Part shown: positions 48,186 through 64,000 of the stretch, one piece after another | Position numbering within the stretch: position 1 is the first letter of the stretch | Layout: each line of letters starts with the position of its first letter | NCBI GenBank assembly: GCA_965242925.1 | Contig: CBDEUM010000012.1 | Span: forward strand, 173,857-237,856 | Reading direction: 5' to 3' | Origin: Roseibacillus sp. | GTDB taxonomy: Bacteria; Verrucomicrobiota; Verrucomicrobiia; Verrucomicrobiales; Akkermansiaceae | Length of the DNA: 64,000 nt | Program-made: the position numbers and the translations under genes | Notes under the pieces: generated by a model | Told to the model about the DNA's origin: nothing | Databases searched by the model: none | The model's input: the letters and a program-made list of their open reading frames with translations, nothing else

Positions 48186-50798
48186 ATGAAGCCCTGCCCC
48201 CTCGTCACGGTTCTCTGCCTCGTGTTCACGACGGCAGGGAATCTCGTGGGCGGGGAGAAACTCCACTGGTCCTTTCAGGAACTGCGGAAACCCGACCTGC
48301 CTTCTCCCTCACAGGATGGCTGGGGGCACAACGAGATCGACCGATTCGTGAGTGGTCCCCTGCGGGCAGCGGGACTGGAACCCAGCTCCCGGGCCGACCC
48401 TCTCACCCTTCTCCGTCGCCTCACCCTTGACCTCACCGGCCTCCCCCCGACCCTCGGGGAAATCGAACGCTTCGAATCTGCGGTGGAGGACCAGGGTCCG
48501 GATCAGGCCTACCTTGGGCTCGTCAATCGCCTTCTTGCTTCACCTCATTACGGGGAACGCTGGGGACGGCACTGGCTCGACGTGGCCCGCTACGTACAGG
48601 GCAAGACCAAGGTGGCCGCGGTGGCCCGTACCGACATGGCTGAACCCTACCGCGATTACGTGGTGCGCTCTCTCAATGCCGACAAGACCTTTGACCGATT
48701 TGTCCTCGAGCAGCTGGCCGGCGATCTCCTTGCGCGGGATCCTGCCACCGGGCAGGACCCCGAAGACGAGCAGTCCTACTTGGCCCTGATTTCCGCTCCC
48801 GGCTTTCTCTCCATCGGTCCATGGTTCGCAGACTGCGCCGATCCCAACTCGCTGCGCATGGACATCATCGACGAACAGATGACCACCACAACCCAGGCGT
48901 TCCTCGGCCTCAACTTCGGCTGCGCCCGTTGTCATGACCACTTCTTCGATCCCATCCCCACCCGGGACTACTACGCCCTGGCCGGGATTTTCGGGAGCAC
49001 CCGGATCCTGAAGGAGAACAGCGAGAACTGGCGGGACGGACGCTACCGGTTGACGCAACCCGAGGCCTCTGCGGAGCGGGTCGAGGCGGAACAACACGTC
49101 CGTGAAATCATCGCCAACCTGCGCCAGGACCGGTGGGAACACCTCATGGATGCTCGCGAGGGATTCGTGACCCGGCAAGTCGAGGCCCGGGGCAACTTCT
49201 ACCGCCAGGCTCTCGGGAGCCTCCCTGCCATGCCGAGTGTTCAGATCGAGGCGGAGGACTATAAGGGGCAAAACAACGTCCGCCGGATCGAACTGGGCGA
49301 TGAGATGGTGGTGGAAACGCAGCGGGAACGCCTGCAATGGGTCGGCTGGCGCCCTGATCTTCCCGAGGCCGGAACATACACCCTCCTGATTCGGTGCGCA
49401 GCTCCGGAGTCCTACCGCGTGGAACTCAAGATCGACGGCAAATCCGTGGCGGAAGATCTCGCTCTCCCCGCTACCGGTGGCTGGGAACCCGAACACTTCC
49501 GCTGGGTCAGTCTCGGTCACTACCTCTTTCGCAAGGGGAAGAACGACGTGCGATTCCGGGCACAGGATCACTCCTATCTTCCACGTCTCGACAAACTGCG
49601 CTTTGTCCGCACCCCACCCCAACGGGGGAAATGGCTCAATGCCGCTGTGAAGAAATTTGATGTTAACAAATCGATCCTCTCCGAACTGCAATTCGTACCC
49701 CGGGCCTGGCCCCCCGGCATTGCGGATCTTGAACGGTTCCTCATACCTCCCGCCCTGCCCCGGCTCGACGCAGAAATTGCAGCGCTCCACGACCTCCACC
49801 CTCCATTGCCCCGCATGCTCGCGGTGACCGATGCCACCGAGACCCGGAATGAACCCGTCCACCGCAGCGGTGACGTCTACGACGTGGAGAAGGAAGCCGT
49901 CCCGCGCGCCGTTCCCTCCTTCGCCAGAAACCTTCTCCGCAGCCCGACGATTCCGGGCAACGCGAGCGGACGTCTCCAACTCGCGCAGTGGATAACAGAT
50001 CCCAAGAACCCACTCACCGCCCGCGTGATCGCCAACCGTCTCTGGCAAGGGCACTTCGGGACCGGCATCGTGGCCACCCCGGGCGATTTCGGAATACAGG
50101 GAGCCCGTCCCAGCAATCAACCTCTCCTCGACTTTCTTGCCACCAGACTCATCGAAGAGAAATGGTCTCTCAAGGCCCTTCACCGTCTCATCGTCACTTC
50201 GGCAACCTATCGCCAGAGCAGTGCTCAGGTAGCGGCCAAGGCGGTTCTTGATCCCGATAACAGACTTCTCTGGCGCTTTCCCCGCCGCCGACTGGAAGCA
50301 GAGGCTCTCTACGACTCGATGTTGAGTCTTGCCGGCAAGGTCCCGCGCCAACCCGGCGGACAACCCCTCGACAACAACAGGTCGAAAGACCGGGCGATGT
50401 ACATTCTCACCTCGGGACGCTCCCCGCTGGGGATGGGCATTGAGATCCGCAAGATGCTCCACCTCTTCGGCTATGACCCCTCCGGGGTTCCCGTGCACCA
50501 GCGCGACCATTCGAGGAATGCCCCCCAGTCACTCTTCTGGCTGAACAACAAGCTGCCCCGCTATTACGCCACCAGGCTCGCCGAGCGCCTCCGCGCCCTG
50601 CCCGACCTCAACGACGAACAACGCGTCACGATCGCCTTCCGCATGATCCTCGGTCGCTCTCCCGGCCCAACGCTGATGGAGCAGACCTTCACCTACCTCG
50701 ATCACTGCCGGATCGTGCAGGACCTCGGCGAAACCGAATCGTGGGCCCGGGTCTGTCTCGGGCTCTTCTCCTCCGACAGCTTCAGTTATCTCGAATGA
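48186..50798 (+). CDS. DUF1549/DUF1553 protein with inserted CBM6/CBM35-like domain
   Basis: HWSF, YGERWGRHWLDVARY, CARCH, insert IEAEDY...AGTYTL...TGGW...LDKL, NPLTARVIANRLW. Confidence 0.88.
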   Translation: MKPCPLVTVLCLVFTTAGNLVGGEKLHWSFQELRKPDLPSPSQDGWGHNEIDRFVSGPLRAAGLEPSSRADPLTLLRRLTLDLTGLPPTLGEIERFESAVEDQGPDQAYLGLVNRLLASPHYGERWGRHWLDVARYVQGKTKVAAVARTDMAEPYRDYVVRSLNADKTFDRFVLEQLAGDLLARDPATGQDPEDEQSYLALISAPGFLSIGPWFADCADPNSLRMDIIDEQMTTTTQAFLGLNFGCARCHDHFFDPIPTRDYYALAGIFGSTRILKENSENWRDGRYRLTQPEASAERVEAEQHVREIIANLRQDRWEHLMDAREGFVTRQVEARGNFYRQALGSLPAMPSVQIEAEDYKGQNNVRRIELGDEMVVETQRERLQWVGWRPDLPEAGTYTLLIRCAAPESYRVELKIDGKSVAEDLALPATGGWEPEHFRWVSLGHYLFRKGKNDVRFRAQDHSYLPRLDKLRFVRTPPQRGKWLNAAVKKFDVNKSILSELQFVPRAWPPGIADLERFLIPPALPRLDAEIAALHDLHPPLPRMLAVTDATETRNEPVHRSGDVYDVEKEAVPRAVPSFARNLLRSPTIPGNASGRLQLAQWITDPKNPLTARVIANRLWQGHFGTGIVATPGDFGIQGARPSNQPLLDFLATRLIEEKWSLKALHRLIVTSATYRQSSAQVAAKAVLDPDNRLLWRFPRRRLEAEALYDSMLSLAGKVPRQPGGQPLDNNRSKDRAMYILTSGRSPLGMGIEIRKMLHLFGYDPSGVPVHQRDHSRNAPQSLFWLNNKLPRYYATRLAERLRALPDLNDEQRVTIAFRMILGRSPGPTLMEQTFTYLDHCRIVQDLGETESWARVCLGLFSSDSFSYLE

Positions 50799-52228
50799 AC
50801 CAGCACCATCATGAGGAGACAGGCAGCGCTCCTGTCCTGCCCTGGTCCCGGAGAGGATTCATGGGCTTCAGCGGCTTGGCCCTCTGCGATCTCCTTGCCC
50901 GCCAGTCCTGCCGGGCATCAGATAGCGGAACCTCTCCCGGTTCCAGCAAACTCGAACCTCACTTTCCCGCCCGCGCGAAGCGCATGATCTTCATCCTGCT
51001 CGACGGCGGACTCTCCCAGGTCGATTCCTACGACTATAAGCCGCGCCTGCAGGAGGAGCACGGCAAACCCCTCCCGGCCTCCATCCGATCACCCAGGTTC
51101 ACCTTCGCCCAACGAGGCCACATCATCGGGTCGCCCTTTCAATGGACGCAGTGGGGCGAGAGCGGCTGGTGGGCCAGCAATCTCTTCCCGAAGGTCAACG
51201 GCGGATGGATCGACAAACTCTGTTTTCTCCACTCGCTGCACCATGAAAACGAGGATCACATCACCGCCATGTCGATGCTCAACACGGGTGTTCCCCGCGA
51301 GGTGCGCCCCGCCCTGGGCAATTGGCTCCTCTACGGCCTGAGCTCCGATAACGGCAACCTGCCCGGCTATGTTGACCTCACGCCCAAGGACGGCAGGACG
51401 TCCCCCACCGGCTTCCTTCCCTCCTCCTTCGCCGGTGCGCCCATCCTGAAGCCCTCAAGGAAAGGCGAGGCCCTGAAGTGGGACAACCTGACGGCAGGAT
51501 TCGGAGCCCAGCGCGAGCACCTCGACTTCATCCGGGACGTCAACGAAGAGCACGATCCCCTCCTCGCCGAGTTGCGTAATCGCGAACTCGCCTTCCGCAT
51601 GCAGAGCGTGGCCCCGGACATTATGGACCTCCAGAAGGAATCGCAGGCCACCCGCGACCTCTACGGAATCGGCGGTGACCACACCGACGAGTTCGGCCGC
51701 ACCCTGCTGCTGGCCAGGCGCTTTGCGGAGTCCGGAGTGCGCTTCGTGACCGCCACCCATTCCACCTCCCGCTACGGGAACCTCTGGGACCAGCACGCTG
51801 GCCTGGAAAAGGGCCACCGGGGCAATGCCCAGGCGGTGGACCAGCCCATCGCGGCCCTCCTTCACGACCTGGAGGCCCGGGGCCTGCTGGAGGATACTCT
51901 CGTCCTCTGCGGGAGTGAGTTCGGCCGCACGCCCAGCAGGGAAATCTTCGACGGCCAGATGGGCCGCAGCGACGACGGCCGCGACCACAACCCACACGGC
52001 TTCACCATGTGGATGTGCGGCGGGGGCACCAGGGGCGGCTATCACCACGGTGCCACCGATGACTACGGCTACCATGCCGTGAAGGACAGGGTTTCCATCC
52101 ACGACCTGCATGCCACCATCCTCCACCTGCTGGGGATCGACCACGAGCGACTCACCTTCCACCACTCCGGGCGCGACTACCGTCTTACCGACGTCTTCGG
52201 CAAGGTTGTAAAGGAGATCGTCTCCTGA
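50795..52228 (+). CDS. DUF1501 family protein
   Basis: SRRGFM Tat-like, GGLSQVDSYDYKP, WDQH, EFGRTP, GRDHN; 4-bp overlap with upstream gene. Confidence 0.92.
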   Translation: MNQHHHEETGSAPVLPWSRRGFMGFSGLALCDLLARQSCRASDSGTSPGSSKLEPHFPARAKRMIFILLDGGLSQVDSYDYKPRLQEEHGKPLPASIRSPRFTFAQRGHIIGSPFQWTQWGESGWWASNLFPKVNGGWIDKLCFLHSLHHENEDHITAMSMLNTGVPREVRPALGNWLLYGLSSDNGNLPGYVDLTPKDGRTSPTGFLPSSFAGAPILKPSRKGEALKWDNLTAGFGAQREHLDFIRDVNEEHDPLLAELRNRELAFRMQSVAPDIMDLQKESQATRDLYGIGGDHTDEFGRTLLLARRFAESGVRFVTATHSTSRYGNLWDQHAGLEKGHRGNAQAVDQPIAALLHDLEARGLLEDTLVLCGSEFGRTPSREIFDGQMGRSDDGRDHNPHGFTMWMCGGGTRGGYHHGATDDYGYHAVKDRVSIHDLHATILHLLGIDHERLTFHHSGRDYRLTDVFGKVVKEIVS

Positions 52229-56860: not shown

Positions 56861-57508
56861 TTACCGCGGTTTGAGCAGGGCCCGGCAGGGCGCCCCATCC
56901 GCTCCCTTGATCTTGAGCGGCAGACAGATGAGATCGTAGTCACCCGGTTCGACGTCCTCGAGACGAAGCCCCTCGATGACCCAGATGCCGGCCCCCAGCA
57001 TGACCTGATGCACCTCTACCACGTCCTTTCCAAAACCACCGATGCTGAGATAGTCCACCCCCACCGTCATCACTCCCGCCTCGGCCAAAACCTTCCCGGC
57101 GGCTTCACTGATAGAGACGAAGTTCTTGTCGAAGACCGGGGCCATGTCCCAGCTCCTGGTCGTATTGTGCGTCTTGAAGATGATGCGCTCACCCTGCTGC
57201 AGATTAAGCCCTTCCAGATCGGACGGCGTGATCTGGTCCTCGACATCCATGCCAATCACGCGGCACGGACCGATCGTCGCCTCCAGCGGCATCTCGTCCA
57301 TCCCCGCACCCCCCGGAACGAAGTGGCACATGGCATCCATGTGGGTGGCGGTATGGGCACTGATCTCCAGCTTGGTCAGGTTGCAGGGCATCCCGTCCAC
57401 CCCCAGCTCGAAATGCCGGTAGATCTTCACCTCCGGGTCCCCCTCCCAGTGCACCATCCCGTTCTCCAGGGGAACGGTCACGTCAATCCATTCGCTGCTC
57501 ATCGCCAT
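56861..57508 (-). CDS. Cyclase family / kynurenine formamidase-like metallohydrolase
   Basis: HTATHMDAMCHF, VGVDYLS, H..ML..GI.VIEGL, LPLKIKGADGAPCRA. Confidence 0.9.
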   Translation of the reverse strand: MAMSSEWIDVTVPLENGMVHWEGDPEVKIYRHFELGVDGMPCNLTKLEISAHTATHMDAMCHFVPGGAGMDEMPLEATIGPCRVIGMDVEDQITPSDLEGLNLQQGERIIFKTHNTTRSWDMAPVFDKNFVSISEAAGKVLAEAGVMTVGVDYLSIGGFGKDVVEVHQVMLGAGIWVIEGLRLEDVEPGDYDLICLPLKIKGADGAPCRALLKPR

Positions 57509-57676
57509 CCTTCTGCCAGATTTCCCCGCCCAGGTCGACGGTCCCTTTCCGGTCCCCCGTCATTCGACTCCATGCCCCGGATTACAGTCACATCTTCCAG
57601 CGGTTTGTGGAAACGGAATGACAAATCGACGAAACGCCGCTTGACGCTCCTCGCATTCATTCCGCACAAGCACGGC

Positions 57677-59189
57677 ATGCGACTGCTCCTTCTTCTCCTG
57701 TTCCTCAGCCTGTCACACCGGGTGTCGGCCAACGAGCATCCCAACATCCTCTTCATCCTCGCTGACGACCTCGGCTACGGGGACGTCAGCTGTTACAATC
57801 CCGAGAGCAAGGTTCAGACCCCCAACCTCGACCGCCTCGCGAAGGAAGGACTGCTCTTCACCGACGCCCACAGCCCCTCCACGGTCTGCACGCCCACCCG
57901 CTACAGCATCATGACCGGGCGCATGGCCTTTCGTCTGAATTACCGTGGCGTCTTCACCGGCGTTGGGGGCCCCTGCCTCATCGAAAAGGAACGCCTCACC
58001 CTGCCCGGGATGCTGAAGAAGCAGGGCTACCGCACCGCCCTGTCCGGCAAATGGCATATTGGGATGACCTTCTTCGACAAGGACGGCAAGGCCATCAACA
58101 AGAACGGCCTCGAGGCGGTCCGGCGGGTCGACTACAGCCGCCCCGTTCCCGATGGCCCCATCCACCGCGGCTTCGATCACTTCTTTGGAACTGTTTCCTG
58201 TCCCACCACAGACTGGCTCTACGCCTACATGGAAGGCGACCGGATCCCGGTGCCGCCCACCGGTCAGGTCGACAAAAGTAAACTCCCAAAGCACGAATGG
58301 TCGTTCGACTGCCGCCCCGGACTCGTCGCCCCCGGATTCGATCTTGAGGAGGTCGACATGGTCTTCCTCGAAAAAAGCCTGCAGTTCCTCGATCAGCACG
58401 CGAAGAAAACTCCGAGGAAACCCTTCTTTCTCTTTCACTCCCTGCAGGCCGTGCATCTGCCCTCCTTCCCCGGCAGGGATTTCAAGGGAAAGACCGGGGC
58501 GGGACCGCACGGGGACTTCATCTTTGAATTCGACCATGTCATCGGGAAACTCCTGCAGAAACTCGACAAACTCGACCTCGCCGAAGGAGACCCTCGTCAT
58601 CGTCTCCAGCGACAACGGCCCCGAGGTCGGGACCGTGATCAACATGCGCAACAAGTACCAGCACGATGGCGCCCGGCCCTGGCGCGGCGTGAAGCGGGAC
58701 AACTGGGAGGGCGGGCACCGCGTTCCCATGGTGGCGCGCTGGCCGGGCCGGATTAAGGCAAACACCAGGACCAGCCAGACCGTCTGCCTCACCGACCTGA
58801 TGGCCACCTGCGCCGCCCTCACCGGGGCCAAACTGCCAGCCAACGCAGCCGAGGACAGCTTCAACATGCTCCCCGTTCTCCTGGGCAAGACCACCAAGCC
58901 GGTCCGGGAGCATACCCTCCACCAGACCATCAGCCTGGCCCTTGCGATCCGCCAGGGCGACTGGAAGTATCTCGATCACAAGGGGTCCGGTGGCAACAAT
59001 TATGCTCGTGGCGCCCTCCGGAAGTTTGCCATTCCGGACAATGCTCCCGACGCCCCGGGACAACTCTACAACCTCGCCAGGGATCCCGGAGAGAAGGACA
59101 ACCTCGCCGCCGGGAACCCCCAGTTGGTCAAGCAACTCAAGGCCAGGCTGGAGGAATTCAAGACGAGCGGTCGCAGCGCCCCCCGCTAA
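57677..59189 (+). CDS. Secreted arylsulfatase (apparent +1 frameshift near 58585)
   Basis: ADDLGYGD, CTPTR, GKWH, AVH in the first frame; ETLVIVSSDNG, K.DNWEGGHRVP, LYNL..DPGE in the second frame. Confidence 0.9.
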
Positions 59190-59596: not shown

Positions 59597-59696
59597 GCTA
59601 AACGCTTCGGGAAAAGCGATGGCCTTGCGGCCCTTCCGAGCTCCGCCGGCTGAAGGCGCCTGATCTGGCCTACTGCAATCCTTTTAATCTTACGCC

Positions 59697-59733
59697 CCGG
59701 GGGTTCCGCAAAAGCGGAGCCCCCGGTTTTTTT
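59697..59733 (+). terminator. Rho-independent terminator
   Basis: 13-bp stem CCGGGGGTTCCGC-AAAA-GCGGAGCCCCCGG followed by T7. Confidence 0.85.
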
Positions 59734-59779
59734 GCAGGATTGATGCATGACGTCCGCCCTGCTTCCCTTTCCGCCGACC

Positions 59780-61132
59780 ATGAAGAGCCTCATCCTCACC
59801 GGCCTCCTCGCACTCGGTAGCCTGGCCCTCGCCGCCCCACCCAACGTGGTGATTTTCCTCACCGACGACCAGGGCACCCTGGATGCCAATTGCTACGGAT
59901 CGAAGGATCTCTACACTCCCGCCATGGACCGCCTGGCCACCACCGGGGTGCGCTTCACCCAGGCCTACGCGCATACAGTCTGCTGCCCGGCCCGGGCCCT
60001 CCTCATGACCGGTCGCCACCCCCAACGCTCCGGTGTGACCCACTGGACCCAGGGGGACCGCAAGGGCAGCGACAGCAGAAACAGGAACATGGCCGCTTCC
60101 GAGATCACCATCGCGGAAGTCCTCAGGAAGGCAGGCTACGCCACCGCCATTTTCGGAAAATGGCATCTCGGCGCCAGGGAAGGCCACGATCCGCTGGCCC
60201 AGGGATTCGATCACCACTTCGGCCACCTCGGCGGTTTCATCGACAACTACAACCACTTCTTCCTGCACGGGCAGGGCTTCCACGACCTCTACGAGGACAA
60301 CGTGGAGATCTTCAAACGCGACGAGTACTTCCCGGACCTGATGACGAATCGCGCCCTCGACTACATCGACGCCCATCGGGACAAGCCCTTCTTCCTCTAC
60401 ATGGCCTTCAACATCCCCCACTACCCCGAACAACACGACAAGAAGTTCGAGGAGCGCTACCAGGACCTGCCCATGCCGAGGCAATCCTACGCCCGCATGA
60501 TCTCCACCACCGACGACCGCATGGGCCGGATTCTCGACCGTCTTGAAAAGCGCAAGCTGCACGGGAACACCATCGTCATCTTCATGAGCGACAACGGTCA
60601 CTCCTCCGAGGAGGGTGCCCGGATCCGGGCCAATCACAAAAGCGGCATGAAGGAGGGACATTACTACCACGCCCATGGCGGCGGGGGGAACACCGGCAAA
60701 TGGAGGGGTTCCAAGGGGTCCTACTACGAGGGCGGCCTGCGTGTTCCCGCCATCATCAGCTATCCCGCGAAGCTCCCGAAGGGGGAGGTCCGCGACCAGG
60801 CCATCACGGCCGCGGACTGGTTTCCCACCATCCTCGACCTGTGCGAAATCGAGCGCCCCAAGGTGCAGCTCGATGGCCACTCGGTGCTTCCGCTCATCCA
60901 GAAGCCGGACTCCCCTTCGCTTCACCGCACCCTGCACTGGGGCTGGGGCAACGGCTGGGCCGTCCGCAAGGGCGACTGGAAACTCATCGGCAACGGCACC
61001 CAGCCACGGTTTCTCGGCAGCCTGGCCGGGGAGCACCCCGAGGCCTCGAACCATCTCAAAGAGAAACCGAAGCTGGTCCAGCAGCTGCTCCAACTGCATC
61101 AAGGCTGGGTTGAAGAAACGCGTCCCCGATAA
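59780..61132 (+). CDS. Secreted sulfatase
   Basis: Signal peptide; TDDQG, CCPAR...TGR, GKWHLG, PHYP, SDNG, KGSYYEGGLRVP. Confidence 0.93.
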   Translation: MKSLILTGLLALGSLALAAPPNVVIFLTDDQGTLDANCYGSKDLYTPAMDRLATTGVRFTQAYAHTVCCPARALLMTGRHPQRSGVTHWTQGDRKGSDSRNRNMAASEITIAEVLRKAGYATAIFGKWHLGAREGHDPLAQGFDHHFGHLGGFIDNYNHFFLHGQGFHDLYEDNVEIFKRDEYFPDLMTNRALDYIDAHRDKPFFLYMAFNIPHYPEQHDKKFEERYQDLPMPRQSYARMISTTDDRMGRILDRLEKRKLHGNTIVIFMSDNGHSSEEGARIRANHKSGMKEGHYYHAHGGGGNTGKWRGSKGSYYEGGLRVPAIISYPAKLPKGEVRDQAITAADWFPTILDLCEIERPKVQLDGHSVLPLIQKPDSPSLHRTLHWGWGNGWAVRKGDWKLIGNGTQPRFLGSLAGEHPEASNHLKEKPKLVQQLLQLHQGWVEETRPR

Positions 61133-61194
61133 GGAGTATCCCGGCACTCCCCACACAGTTGACTTATGCAACAAGCAACCTTTATTGAAGCAAT

Positions 61195-62862
61195 ATGAAC
61201 CCCACCCGCACCTGTCGTTACCTGGGGTTCCTCGGCTTGGGAATCGCCCTCACCATCTCCCTCTACATGGCTTGGACCTCCCTCCAGGGCGGGGCCGTAG
61301 CCGGGTGCTCCGGCGAGGGGAGCGGCTGTCACAGCGTCCTCTCCAGCAAATGGGGATACGTGCTCGGACTGCCGGTCAGTCTCACCGGCCTCCCCATTTA
61401 CGGGTCGCTGCTGTTCTTCTCCTTCGGTGCCTCCCCGCGATCCCGGGTGCTGCTCAACACCCTCTCGATCCTCGTGGTGGGAGCGGCTCTCTGGTTCGCG
61501 GCAATACAGCTCCTTCTCCTGAAGGCCTTCTGCCCGTGGTGCTGCACCACCCACGGATTCGCGGTGGCGGGCACCCTCCTCCTTGCTTTCTCCCGCCGGA
61601 CCGAACCGGTACACAGGCGGCCTGTCCTGGTCGGGGCCCTGGCCCTTCCCGCCCTCTGTGGTTTGATCGCTCTCCAGATCTTCGGCCCCGCCCCGGACCA
61701 GTCCCAGCGGGCCTCCCTGGGCAGCGCCGGTGCCCAGCAGGGTGCTGATCATCTCGTCTCCCTGCATGACGGACAGTTCGTCCTGAACCCGGCGGACCTT
61801 CCCGTCATCGGCTCTCCCGAGGCCCGCCATGCGGTCGTCGCCCTTGGCGATTACACCTGCGCGTTCTGCCGCAAGCTGCACGGGCAATTGAAGCAGACGG
61901 TCGAAGCCTACCCGCCCGGCCAGCTCTGCGTGATCGAACTGCCGGTCGCCCGGGATGCCAGGGGTGCAGAAATTCAGCGGCTCATGCTTTCACTCTGGCG
62001 CAGTCACCCGGAGACCAGGACGGCCCTGGACACCAGGATCTATCAACGCCGCCTTTCCATCGATCCAAAGGCCATCCGGCAGGCTGCTGAGGCCCTCCTC
62101 GGGGAGGAGGCTGTCAGCGCATCGCTGCGGGACCACGGTCAGTGGGCCGAGGATCAGATTTCCCTCGCTTCGCGCGTCCTGGAGGCCAACCGCAAGTTGA
62201 CCGGAGCCCCTCACCTCCCCCAGTTGATCGTCGGGGAGGAAGTCAACATCGGAGCCTCGCGTGATCTCGAGACCTACCTCGATCTCTTCGCGCGCAACCT
62301 TGATCTGAAAGCTCCGAGCGAGGAAGCGCTGGCCCGGGCAACCACGATCACCCCCTCTGCTCCACCGGCCCCTCCCACCGTGGCTTCTCTCGCACCCACT
62401 ACCGGGATCCTGTGGTCGACCCTTGAGCAGGGACCCGGACGTTCTCCCCGTCATCCGGAAATTCTGTGGCCCGCCCCCAGCACCATCCCGCACTCCCATG
62501 CCTCCCGGAAAGACAAGGACGGCGAGGACATCCCAGCCGGCTACTTCGCCTGGATGATGGAACACTTTGAAATGCCTGACGAGATCCTGCTGGCCGCTCC
62601 CACTGCCAACCCGGATGGGGATACCAGCAGGAACGGACTGGAGTACTGGTGCCGTCTCGACCCCAAGCAGAACGACTCCCGACCGGGTTCAGTGCACCGG
62701 GATTCAAAGGGCAACTTGGTCTACGCCCTTGAACTTCGGGATGACGATTTGGTGCCGGACGGGTTCTTCCAGTTCTCCGACGACCTGTGGTTCGCCCGCC
62801 CCTCCCTGGCCCCGTTCTCGGGGCCAGTACAAGCGATCCCGACCCGGAAGACGGGCTCCTGA
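61195..62862 (+). CDS. VKOR-family disulfide-bond protein fused to a DsbA/thioredoxin-like domain plus C-terminal extension
   Basis: VKOR loop cysteines GCSGEGSGC..VLSSKW..LGLPVS and TM CPWC; DsbA-like GDYTCAFC; then Pro/Thr linker and NPDGD..NGLEY...DP. Confidence 0.88.
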   Translation: MNPTRTCRYLGFLGLGIALTISLYMAWTSLQGGAVAGCSGEGSGCHSVLSSKWGYVLGLPVSLTGLPIYGSLLFFSFGASPRSRVLLNTLSILVVGAALWFAAIQLLLLKAFCPWCCTTHGFAVAGTLLLAFSRRTEPVHRRPVLVGALALPALCGLIALQIFGPAPDQSQRASLGSAGAQQGADHLVSLHDGQFVLNPADLPVIGSPEARHAVVALGDYTCAFCRKLHGQLKQTVEAYPPGQLCVIELPVARDARGAEIQRLMLSLWRSHPETRTALDTRIYQRRLSIDPKAIRQAAEALLGEEAVSASLRDHGQWAEDQISLASRVLEANRKLTGAPHLPQLIVGEEVNIGASRDLETYLDLFARNLDLKAPSEEALARATTITPSAPPAPPTVASLAPTTGILWSTLEQGPGRSPRHPEILWPAPSTIPHSHASRKDKDGEDIPAGYFAWMMEHFEMPDEILLAAPTANPDGDTSRNGLEYWCRLDPKQNDSRPGSVHRDSKGNLVYALELRDDDLVPDGFFQFSDDLWFARPSLAPFSGPVQAIPTRKTGS

Positions 62863-64000
62863 CCTGGATGGCAACGGACCCTTCCCCGAAACCGGGTCCC
62901 ACCCGCTTCGCGCGGGCGGACTTCAGGATCGACTGGCCGGCAGATTCCCAATGTCTCCAGCACTGCGCGGCTGTCGCGGTGGCCACCTGTCAACCGGACA
63001 GCGAACAAATCCGCGCCACATTTCAGGCCTGCCTTGCCACCTGCTCCCGGGGCATGTGCGCCGAGATTTTTGAACCGGTGTGTGGATGCGACGGCCAGAC
63101 CTACGGCAATGCCTGCGCGGCGGCCAATGCCAATGCTGGAGTGGAGTATCTGGGAGCCTGCGGGGAGCCTGAATGCACCAGCAATGACGACTGCGATGAG
63201 GCCGACTACTGCTTCTCCGAAGACGGTTGTGACGCCCCGGGAGTCTGCCAACCGCGACCGGTGGTCTGCACCCTGGAATTCAACCCGGTCTGTGGATGCG
63301 ATGGGCAGACCTACGCCACTGCCTGCGTGGCGGCTGCGTCCGGGGTGAATATCGCCAGCCGGGGAGCCTGTGAAGTCAATGGCGGATGCAACAGCAATGC
63401 CGACTGCGACGAAGCCGACTACTGTTTCTCCGAAGATGGTTGTGACACCCCGGGAATCTGCCAGCTACGACCGCGATTCTGCACCCGCGAGTTCAGGCCG
63501 GTCTGTGGATGCGACGGCAGAACCTACGGCAATGCCTGCCAGGCGGCTGCAGCCGGGATGAATGTCGCCAGCCAGGGAGTCTGCGAGGTGACCTGCGACA
63601 GCAATGCCGACTGCGACGAGGCCGACTACTGCTTCTCCGAAGACGGTTGTGACGCCCCGGGAATCTGTCAACCACGACCGGAGATCTGCACCCTGGAGTT
63701 CAACCCGGTCTGTGGATGCGACGGCAGGACCTACGGCAATGCCTGCGCGGCGGCCGGGGCCGGGGTGAATGTCGCCCGCCGGGGAGCCTGTGAAGTCAAA
63801 GCCGAGTGCGACAGCAATGCCGACTGCGACGAGGCCGACTACTGTTTCTCCGAAGACGGTTGTGACGCCCCGGGAATCTGCCAGCTACGACCGCGATTCT
63901 GCACCCGCGAGTTCAACCCGGTCTGTGGATGCGACGGCAGGACCTACGGCAATGCCTGCACGGCGGCTGCGGCCGGGGTCAATATCGCCAGCCGGGGAGT
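62745..64000 (+). CDS. Cys-rich tandem Kazal-type serine protease inhibitor array (partial; probable -1 continuation of 61195 ORF)
   Basis: Not in ORF track. Stop-free frame from 62745 to window end: CAEIFEPVCGCDGQTYGNAC...GAC then four modules such as CTSNDDCDEADYCFSEDGCDAPGVCQPRPVVCTLEFNPVCGCDGQTYATAC...GAC. Confidence 0.88.
63174..64000 (+). repeat. Intragenic tandem repeat, units of 213/207/213 bp
   Basis: Units start at 63174, 63387, 63594, 63807; shared GCCGACTACTGYTTCTCCGAAGAYGGTTGTGAC and CCGGTCTGTGGATGCGA. Confidence 0.92.

Follow-up and report, generated by a model that had tools for sequence, protein, structure and literature searches.

A Roseibacillus gene predicted to encode a VKOR-thioredoxin oxidase and a Kazal-module array on one chain

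Results

A gene split between two frames at a contig end

The window analysed here is a stretch of 64,000 nucleotides (nt) from an assembly of Roseibacillus sp. (G000:C12:173857-237856), and our subject is a gene that begins at its position 61195 and runs to its end, with a predicted VKOR membrane domain, a DsbA-like thioredoxin (Trx) domain and an array of Kazal-type modules. As it stands in the window, this gene is read in two frames. An open reading frame (ORF) on the forward strand, 61195-62862, encodes 555 amino acids (aa), and a -1 frame that is open from 62745 to 63998, behind a TGA at 62742-62744, encodes 418 aa, 49 of them Cys, and is free of stops; the two share 118 nt. The first-pass annotation of this DNA had described both, reading the first as a VKOR domain with a loop Cys pair and CPWC followed by a DsbA-like CAFC domain, and the second as more than 45 Cys in Kazal-containing modules; the profile scores and Cys positions given below bear these assignments out. 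Contig C12 is 237856 nt long, and because the window stops where the contig stops, the truncation of the Kazal array is an effect of the assembly and not a biological one. The parts of the gene are collected in Table 1. In ortholog numbering, the whole protein runs from VKOR transmembrane (TM) helices 1-4 through TM5, the Trx domain (to ~aa 370), a Pro/Ser/Thr-rich linker, a ~130-aa module and a 10-Cys head to four to eight further modules of 69-72 aa each.

Table 1. Parts of the predicted VKOR-Trx-Kazal gene in window coordinates.
Feature	Position	Strand	Remarks
First part of the gene, ORF of 555 aa	61195..62862	+	Last 13 codons (from ~62821) are out-of-frame read-through to a false stop
VKOR four-helix core, aa 10-135	61222..61599	+	C38/C45 loop pair, C113-P-W-C116; Pfam VKOR 60.3 bits
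Fifth TM helix, aa 144-162	61624..61680	+	Hydropathy 2.32; basic loop SRRTEPVHRRP just before
DsbA/ScsC-like thioredoxin-fold domain, aa 186-354	61750..62256	+	Pfam Thioredoxin_4; C222-A-F-C225 (CGFC in orthologs)
Pro/Ser/Thr-rich linker, aa ~372-440	62308..62514	+	Poorly conserved, alignment A1 columns ~375-445
Beta-sandwich module, opening with TSP3-like NPDGD..N.LEY	62515..62939	+	Spans the frameshift
Frameshift site, GGGG in the window versus GGGGG in the predicted real gene	62820..62823	+	
Cys-rich head and first Kazal-like unit	62940..63161	+	10 Cys; loop C-A-E-I-F-E
Four further modules of 69-71 aa each, 4-Cys knot then 6-Cys Kazal	63162..64000	+	Kazal_1 in 5 stretches

Both frames belong to one gene

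Comparison with a second contig of the same assembly, C27, indicates that 61195-64000 of the window and the start of C27 are almost certainly one gene of ~943 aa or more. C27 starts with the sequence of the window end, at ~99% identity. In tblastn searches of the whole assembly, the tail of the VKOR ORF (aa 464-543) was 98.75% identical at C27:2-241 and the Kazal frame 95% identical at C27:209-1411, and in C27 the two share one frame. This frame is already open where C27 begins, extends over 480 aa as far as a stop at nt 1442-1444, contains 51 Cys and ends in ...GACPEIRVPDR, so that, by arithmetic, the C27 version of the whole protein has 463 + 480 = 943 aa. At the level of bases, and up to the point where the repeats diverge, the two contigs differ by a gap of one base (window GTTCTCGGGGCC versus C27 GTTCTCGGGGGCC). 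The same extra G behind 62819 is present in the contigs of 3/3 public runs that cover the site (X1, X2 and X4, from three studies; compared over 61900-63100, which one X4 contig spans in one piece), and the window protein diverges from C27 and from all orthologs right after ...APFSG in alignment A1. The first-pass annotation had proposed that a base is missing here and that a single polypeptide is interrupted. Both proposals stand, the second with the further support of 11 intact same-genus frames and of synteny; the base is missing, however, from the G-run at 62820-62823 and not from the C-runs at 62794-62813 (GCCCGCCCCTCCCTGGCCCC) that it had pointed out at the junction. Its remark that an independent start at ATG 62868 would yield no signal peptide agrees with the translation, MATDPSPKPGPTRF..., which is without a hydrophobic leader.

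The two-ORF split in the window is, from these alignments, best described as a one-base error or a rare variant in the G-run. It is very unlikely that the GGGG allele is real in the strain, leaving a gene that is broken or phase-switched to a 555-aa VKOR-Trx protein without the array, or one whose two parts are joined by ribosomal frameshifting. Such an allele would account for the GGGG of the window itself and might be echoed in P0019, a protein from an assembly of another species that is also one base shifted, ~7 codons upstream; moreover, the raw reads of run X21 are without cover at the site. However, GGGGG is the form found in C27 and in the three other runs, 18/19 database clusters of the protein are in frame, and a run of four to five G is short for phase variation. 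Orthologs have neither a homopolymer nor a conserved slippery site at this place (TCAGCGGCC, TCTGAGGCC and similar), and programmed frameshifting was rejected on that ground.

P0019, from another Roseibacillus-type species, changes frame after ...FTDTET and continues as LPFLRQNLL..., giving a 932-aa call in which the Kazal DNA is read out of frame. With it, independent assemblies show two shifts of one base each close to this junction, which may be a coincidence or may be real on/off variants.

The VKOR and thioredoxin domains

Pfam places VKOR (PF07884) at aa 16-125 of the 555-aa ORF (60.3 bits against a cut-off of 27.5) and Thioredoxin_4 (PF13462) at aa 203-313 (27.4 bits against 23.2); NCBIfam profiles gave no match above cut-off. 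The loop pair C38/C45, the CPWC motif (C113-C116) and the CAFC motif (C222-C225) are invariant in 17/17 aligned sequences, at a mean column identity of 57%. Hydropathy yields TM helices at 10-30, 56-74, 90-108 and 144-162, with the CPWC helix (113-135) weaker and below the threshold used, and an AlphaFold2 (AF2) model of an ortholog, of low confidence, has a helix at 143-163. In phmmer searches of the PDB, aa 13-167 align with Synechococcus VKOR (4nv6, E 9.9e-5; 3kp9, E 1.7e-3), and the predicted five-helix layout is that of the Synechococcus VKOR-Trx protein. On a positive-inside reading of the basic loop SRRTEPVHRRP before TM5, everything that follows this helix would lie in the periplasm. 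The best PDB matches of the Trx domain are ScsC/DsbA-like proteins (6nen and 4xvw, E 2.4e-12 over aa 184-354; 6mhh, up to E 4.5e-12; 4gxz, E 2.5e-10). An atlas search with the whole protein returned ordinary VKOR-Trx clusters at a score of 0.76, below the level that counts.

The linker and the beta-sandwich module

Residues 382-536 of the full-length AF2 model, which include the linker, have a predicted local distance difference test score (pLDDT) below 50. The module that follows the linker belongs to a family of ~130 aa that begins with a TSP3-like Ca-binding motif, ends in RFxR......P and has no covering Pfam model. Modelled separately from a 33-row alignment, it forms a beta-sandwich with flanking helices (pLDDT 84.4); a Foldseek search of the PDB with this model had no hit at E <= 0.001, and its top hits were CBM21 (E 2.8e-3) and immunoglobulin (Ig)-like sandwiches. 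Among 1.84 billion representatives, 35 relatives were found at E <= 0.001, in which the match lies mostly at the C-terminal end; these are surface-type proteins of Verrucomicrobiota (P0143-P0175), whose N-terminal parts are Temptin_C, He_PIG, FG-GAP, ASPIC or Ig. In the atlas, the module falls into clusters of hypothetical proteins from Verrucomicrobiota, one of which has TSP3_bac in 11% of its members. We treat the module as a putative spacer or surface-type beta-sandwich, and its function in this phylum may be one of sorting or anchoring.

The Kazal modules

The -1 frame matches Kazal_1 (PF00050; E 1.3e-35, 121.6 bits against 21) in five stretches and Kazal_2 (PF07648; E 1.7e-20, 73.3 bits against 22.8), families that we take to be MEROPS I1. 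The modules of the window end at 63371, 63584 and 63791, with the last one cut at the contig end. To define the repeat, we aligned 51 modules of nine proteins (the C27 copy of the source genome, G000, and eight orthologs), excluding the first units; G018 (near-identical to G005), G008 (a masked stretch) and G011 (start not fixed) were left out. Ten Cys are invariant in 51/51 modules, and the consensus is C-N-[TS]-N-A-D-C-x3-D-Y-C-F-S-E-x-G-C-x2-P-G-x-C-x-x-[RK]-P-x-x-C-T-x-E-F-x-P-V-C-G-C-D-G-x-T-Y-G-N-A-C-x-A-A-x-A-G-V-N-V-x3-G-x-C.

The second half of the module aligns, in phmmer searches of the PDB, with ovomucoid (1yu6, E 6.6e-13) and leech-derived tryptase inhibitor (LDTI; 1an1, E 3.6e-8), and in these alignments CT[L/R]EF falls on CTLEY of ovomucoid and CPKIL of LDTI, which we take to be the reactive-site loops, with P1 two residues past the Cys. 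The loops of the four further modules in the window read CTLEFN, CTREFR, CTLEFN and CTREFN. Over the 51 modules, the residue in the P1 place is R in 24, L in 15, F and A in 4 each, P in 2, and V and D in 1 each; P2 is Thr in 45/51, P1' Glu in 41/51 and P2' Phe in 39/51. The most variable positions of the Kazal half are P5, P4, P1 and P3', presumably the pattern to be expected of Kazal contact residues. The likeness to turkey ovomucoid third domain and to LDTI extends from the loop (C-T-L/R-E-F versus CTLEY) to the PxCGxDGxTYxNxC core, whereas the Roseibacillus modules differ in that the fifth Cys has moved to CGC, in the 4-Cys knot added to each unit and in their bacterial host; their resemblance to non-classical Kazals such as LDTI is one of matches only.

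Distribution and synteny

Among 41 related genomes, close matches to the 555-aa protein (60-93% identity) occur in 14/19 of those of the same genus. In 11/19 the match is one uninterrupted frame of 925-1239 aa, in three (G006, G013 and G016) the ortholog is in pieces cut by contig ends, and the remaining five have a short paralog or a weak match only. Pfam finds VKOR together with 5-9 Kazal_1 stretches in 9/9 long frames searched, and Thioredoxin_4 at E <= 0.01 in 7/9, with L015 and L016 below the 23.2-bit cut-off. Intact orthologs, which the first-pass annotation had proposed to look for, therefore exist in related genomes; the opposite arrangement that it had named, with a VKOR-DsbA gene ending near 62862 and an unlinked Kazal gene, was sought among the 41 relatives and was not found.

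The 12 orthologous loci come from metagenome-assembled genomes (MAGs) of Roseibacillus sp. or of Akkermansiaceae bacterium, with the conserved order sulfatase > fusion gene < pntB < pntA > gfo, where gfo encodes a Gfo/Idh/MocA oxidoreductase; pntB lies downstream in 11/12. Joining the C12 end, with its sulfatases, to the C27 start, with pntB, pntA and gfo, reproduces this order.

Kazal_1 was detected in 14 of the 41 relatives, all of the same genus (13/19 besides G000), and in 0/21 outside it. All but two of the Kazal_1 matches listed lie on contigs and in same-length open frames that hold fusion genes, the two exceptions being small frames in G006 (53 aa, where a contig begins) and in G015 (36 aa, E 3.5e-4). 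Within these relatives, detectable Kazal domains are thus confined to Roseibacillus and, bar two fragments, to the fusion. In the source genome (89.9% complete), Kazal_1 matches occur only at C12 and C27; this genome has two VKOR genes, the fusion and a 392-aa VKOR-Trx gene on C14, and no DsbB match was found in it. In a collection of 5.8 billion proteins, 22 proteins matched at E <= 1e-5 (among 7999 scored): 18 combine VKOR and Kazal, all at >=55% identity and with 'uncharacterized membrane protein' as their sole name, one is the frameshifted P0019 and three carry DUF1573. As far as these searches detect it, the VKOR-Trx-Kazal fusion is confined to a clade of marine Roseibacillus.

Origin of the VKOR-Trx core

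A maximum-likelihood tree of 29 VKOR-Trx cores, with a midpoint root only, places the Kazal-bearing cores and two DUF1573-bearing proteins of another family together (100/100) and apart from the short housekeeping forms (100/100). The tree does not include the fused genes of G003, G008, G011 and G018 or the G037 DUF1573 protein, which is without the Trx CxxC and failed the motif filter; the two DUF1573 rows sit on long branches, and their exact placement is unsure. Because the tree separates the Kazal- and DUF1573-bearing cores from the short forms, the fused gene is, by this phylogeny, not a recent copy of the housekeeping gene but a member of a lineage of 'extended' VKOR-Trx proteins with a varying passenger.

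The DUF1573-bearing proteins of Verrucomicrobiota (G040, G037; P0020-P0022) are the nearest VKOR-Trx relatives, at 36-38% identity, and likewise have a C-terminal extension that would be periplasmic, but theirs consists of one or more Cys-poor Ig-like DUF1573 domains in place of a disulfide-rich array. Three of them (L047, L048 and L049, from G040 and G037) carry C-terminal DUF1573 or HYDIN-type Ig domains, and the G037 protein has lost the Trx CxxC, with only ...SSRC... left. As judged from their predicted domains, these proteins are a second, undescribed class of extended VKOR proteins.

Related architectures

The Synechococcus sp. VKOR-thioredoxin fusion (3kp9, 4nv2, 4nv6) and plant LTO1 share with the Roseibacillus protein the VKOR core, the loop Cys pair and CxxC, the extra TM helix and a Trx fold with CxxC that is extracytoplasmic, in the Roseibacillus protein by prediction. 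These proteins end after the Trx domain and serve other proteins, whereas the Roseibacillus protein runs ~560-850 aa further into linker, beta-sandwich and Kazal chain; in addition, its Trx domain is nearer to ScsC/DsbA-like proteins. The portion of the literature consulted gives bacterial VKOR as fused to DsbA in Synechococcus, with LTO1 as the plant form, and in that portion known VKOR fusions are of the DsbA type and none with an inhibitor is mentioned (PMC13486548). That the VKOR-Trx-Kazal architecture is undescribed, as the first-pass annotation had surmised, agrees with our literature search: at the level of titles and abstract openings, including those on bacterial, Verrucomicrobia or Planctomycetes Kazal proteins, no paper on it was found, and the papers naming VKOR together with Kazal are mammalian gene lists. 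The proteins themselves exist, unannotated, in public databases.

The array has at least 3763 relatives at E <= 1e-5 (among 8000 scored candidates). Standalone bacterial arrays share its ~70-aa, 10-Cys module (a 4-Cys knot and a PVCGCDGxTYxNxC Kazal) at 45-55% identity over the array. They come from Planctomycetota, Phycisphaerae, Polyangiaceae, Myxococcota MAGs and Deferrisomatales, and are named 'Kazal-type serine protease inhibitor domain-containing protein'. They differ from the Roseibacillus array in having an N-terminal signal peptide (in four sequences read), often a dockerin-like start, and loops mostly unlike CT[RL]EF. Among the matches listed, no VKOR was found in any of 120 standalone arrays (231-735 aa class). 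Some carry extra domains, namely Kunitz (PF00014; P0134) or dockerin (PF00404; P0038, P0042 and P0104), which hints that part of the module family may be used in an inhibitor or cell-surface setting.

Among longer proteins, 17 of the best 120 of 811 array matches contain VKOR; 16 are of the Roseibacillus type, and the other, P0181, is a 1438-aa protein from a MAG that bears the NCBI name Candidatus Heimdallarchaeota. P0181 consists of an N-terminal CxxC domain, VKOR at aa 222-328 (CPLC), Thioredoxin (PF00085; WCNFC), 12 modules, a Ser/Thr stretch and a C-terminal TM helix. Like the Roseibacillus protein, it has VKOR, a Trx with CxxC and then the same 10-Cys Kazal modules on a single chain, but its VKOR is of another lineage, its Trx is classical and not DsbA-like, a further CxxC domain stands at its N-terminus, a TM anchor closes the chain, and the beta-sandwich is missing. 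BLASTP of P0181 against the window VKOR-Trx gave no significant similarity (best 13/52 identities around CxxC, E 0.055), and a metagenome scan with its N-terminal 544 aa found no close relative and one weak Trx match. Because its VKOR and Trx belong to different lineages, this one record suggests that the archaeal and Roseibacillus fusions are independent.

Neighbouring genes

Elsewhere in the window, a PSCyt2/PSD1 (DUF1549/DUF1553) gene followed by a DUF1501 gene lies at 48186-52225, a pair typical of Planctomycetota-Verrucomicrobiota, and sulfatase genes lie at 57008-58753 and 59747-61132. Long antisense open frames (494, 262 and 195 aa; for example 59690-61174 and 61099-61887, both on the minus strand) stand opposite the sulfatase and VKOR genes and look like the usual shadow frames of high-GC DNA.

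Discussion

The comparisons above establish, for the predicted protein, a single gene with one order of domains, invariant catalytic Cys and a restriction of Kazal domains to the VKOR fusion. On balance, and by a modest degree of preference, we propose that its product is a self-oxidised, membrane-tethered periplasmic protease inhibitor, where oxidation in cis, the topology and inhibition are what we infer from the domains. In this proposal, the fifth helix of the VKOR membrane domain would export the Trx domain, the flexible linker, the beta-sandwich and the 10-Cys Kazal chain to the periplasm. The CxxC of the tethered Trx would then oxidise the Cys of the C-terminal chain during membrane crossing, forming ~25 disulfides in this protein and as many as ~45 in the ortholog with nine modules. 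Reoxidation of the Trx would fall to the VKOR loop Cys and CPWC, which would pass the electrons to membrane quinone. The folded array would remain tethered to the inner membrane and act as a multi-headed canonical (Laskowski-type) inhibitor of serine proteases that has Arg, Leu or Phe as its P1 residue and protects the periplasm in the manner of ecotin. Ecotin is a periplasmic, broad-range serine-protease inhibitor of Escherichia coli that is thought to shield the envelope from outside proteases; the analogy is one of function only. The folds are unrelated, and ecotin is soluble, a dimer with a single disulfide.

Several observations weigh against this proposal. The modules retain five of the classical Kazal Cys positions; Ala replaces the fifth, and a new Cys appears two residues past the third (PVCGC) in 51/51. 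With this change, their disulfide map would not be the classical one. In the related standalone arrays and in the archaeal fusion, loops such as CPDVWD and CPRIFD often place Asp, Thr or Gln at the P1-equivalent position; these are poor P1 residues for the common serine proteases, so the module family may not be inhibitory in general. No protease gene adjoins the fusion locus in its own or the orthologous neighbourhoods, and the nine PF00089 and three PF00082 matches of the genome lie away from it. Outside the genus, the nearest VKOR-Trx relatives carry a Cys-poor C-terminal DUF1573, with 8-13 Cys per whole protein, and because they do, a C-terminal passenger on this lineage need not be a client. 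The AF2 model of the full-length protein, built from a 17-row alignment, is of low quality (pLDDT 59.6, predicted template modelling score 0.31), too weak for domain contacts. Lastly, the C12 end and C27 disagree on the fifth module (spacings of 70, 71, 69 and 71 versus 70, 71, 69 and 69 aa); there may therefore be more than five modules in the true gene, and their count in the source genome is unsure.

Some of these observations would also fit a fusion that is real but in which the Kazal chain is a binding, scaffold or adhesion module, comparable to follistatin- or agrin-like repeats, that positions a general-purpose 'extended' VKOR-Trx or recruits its substrates, perhaps proteases. We consider this rather unlikely. 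The grouping of the core at 100/100 with the Cys-poor DUF1573 relatives, apart from the short housekeeping forms, speaks for such a role, as do the frequent Asp, Thr or Gln at the P1 place of related arrays and a beta-sandwich module common to surface proteins. So does the density of 10 Cys in ~70 aa, which is that of the follistatin FS module, an EGF-like part plus a Kazal domain with 10 Cys; the match to follistatin is a weak phmmer hit only (1lr7, E 0.0033, query 205-260), and the Pfam search of the window proteins gave no follistatin-N match at E <= 0.1. However, the Roseibacillus loops retain a C-T-x-E-F pattern similar to that of ovomucoid, the P1 residue being R, L or F in 43/51 modules, and the archaeal fusion of VKOR, Trx and Kazal, if independent, argues for a specific tie between oxidase and array. 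Kazal chains, moreover, need disulfides, for which the tethered oxidase would be the nearest catalyst.

It is also conceivable, at still lower probability, that the chain is folded by its own VKOR-Trx and is then cut in the Pro/Ser/Thr linker or past the beta-sandwich, freeing the array as a soluble periplasmic or secreted inhibitor and leaving the N-terminal part as a signal-anchor and single-use foldase. Such a release would make sense of the long, disordered and poorly conserved linker (pLDDT <50) and of an array without a leader of its own, and the standalone arrays of other phyla are secreted, with signal peptides. Against it, no cleavage motif, sortase- or rhomboid-type signal or dedicated protease was identified. 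This scenario is a variant of the tethered inhibitor that we prefer, and does not contradict it.

VKOR-Trx fusions are the textbook alternative to DsbB/DsbA, and all described ones, to our knowledge, act on separate clients. If the tethered, self-oxidised inhibitor proposed here is correct, a VKOR-Trx fusion that shares one polypeptide with its presumed client would be a novelty. More tentatively, and with somewhat less than even confidence, we suggest that the protein exemplifies a self-oxidising client, in which a quinone-coupled VKOR-Trx is tethered to the disulfide-dense protein that it folds. This arrangement would have arisen twice, in marine Verrucomicrobiota and in an Asgard archaeon, and would be the first natural oxidative foldase-substrate fusion in the literature searched. 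It would also provide a test bed for how a membrane oxidase deals with dense, ordered disulfides during export, for co-translocational oxidation and for the forming and proof-reading of knots by one catalyst, and a self-folding inhibitor cassette of this kind could aid the bacterial production of disulfide-rich proteins.

For annotation, the two-ORF call in this window and the shifted call of P0019 are to be read as artefacts or variants of one gene. The finding also bears on the many prokaryotic 10-Cys Kazal arrays, with their at least 3763 relatives, on which no functional study was found among the titles and abstract openings of the literature searched. By Rosetta-stone logic, the fusion ties the VKOR-Trx and Kazal-array families to each other, and the probable second fusion in a Heimdallarchaeota MAG strengthens that tie.

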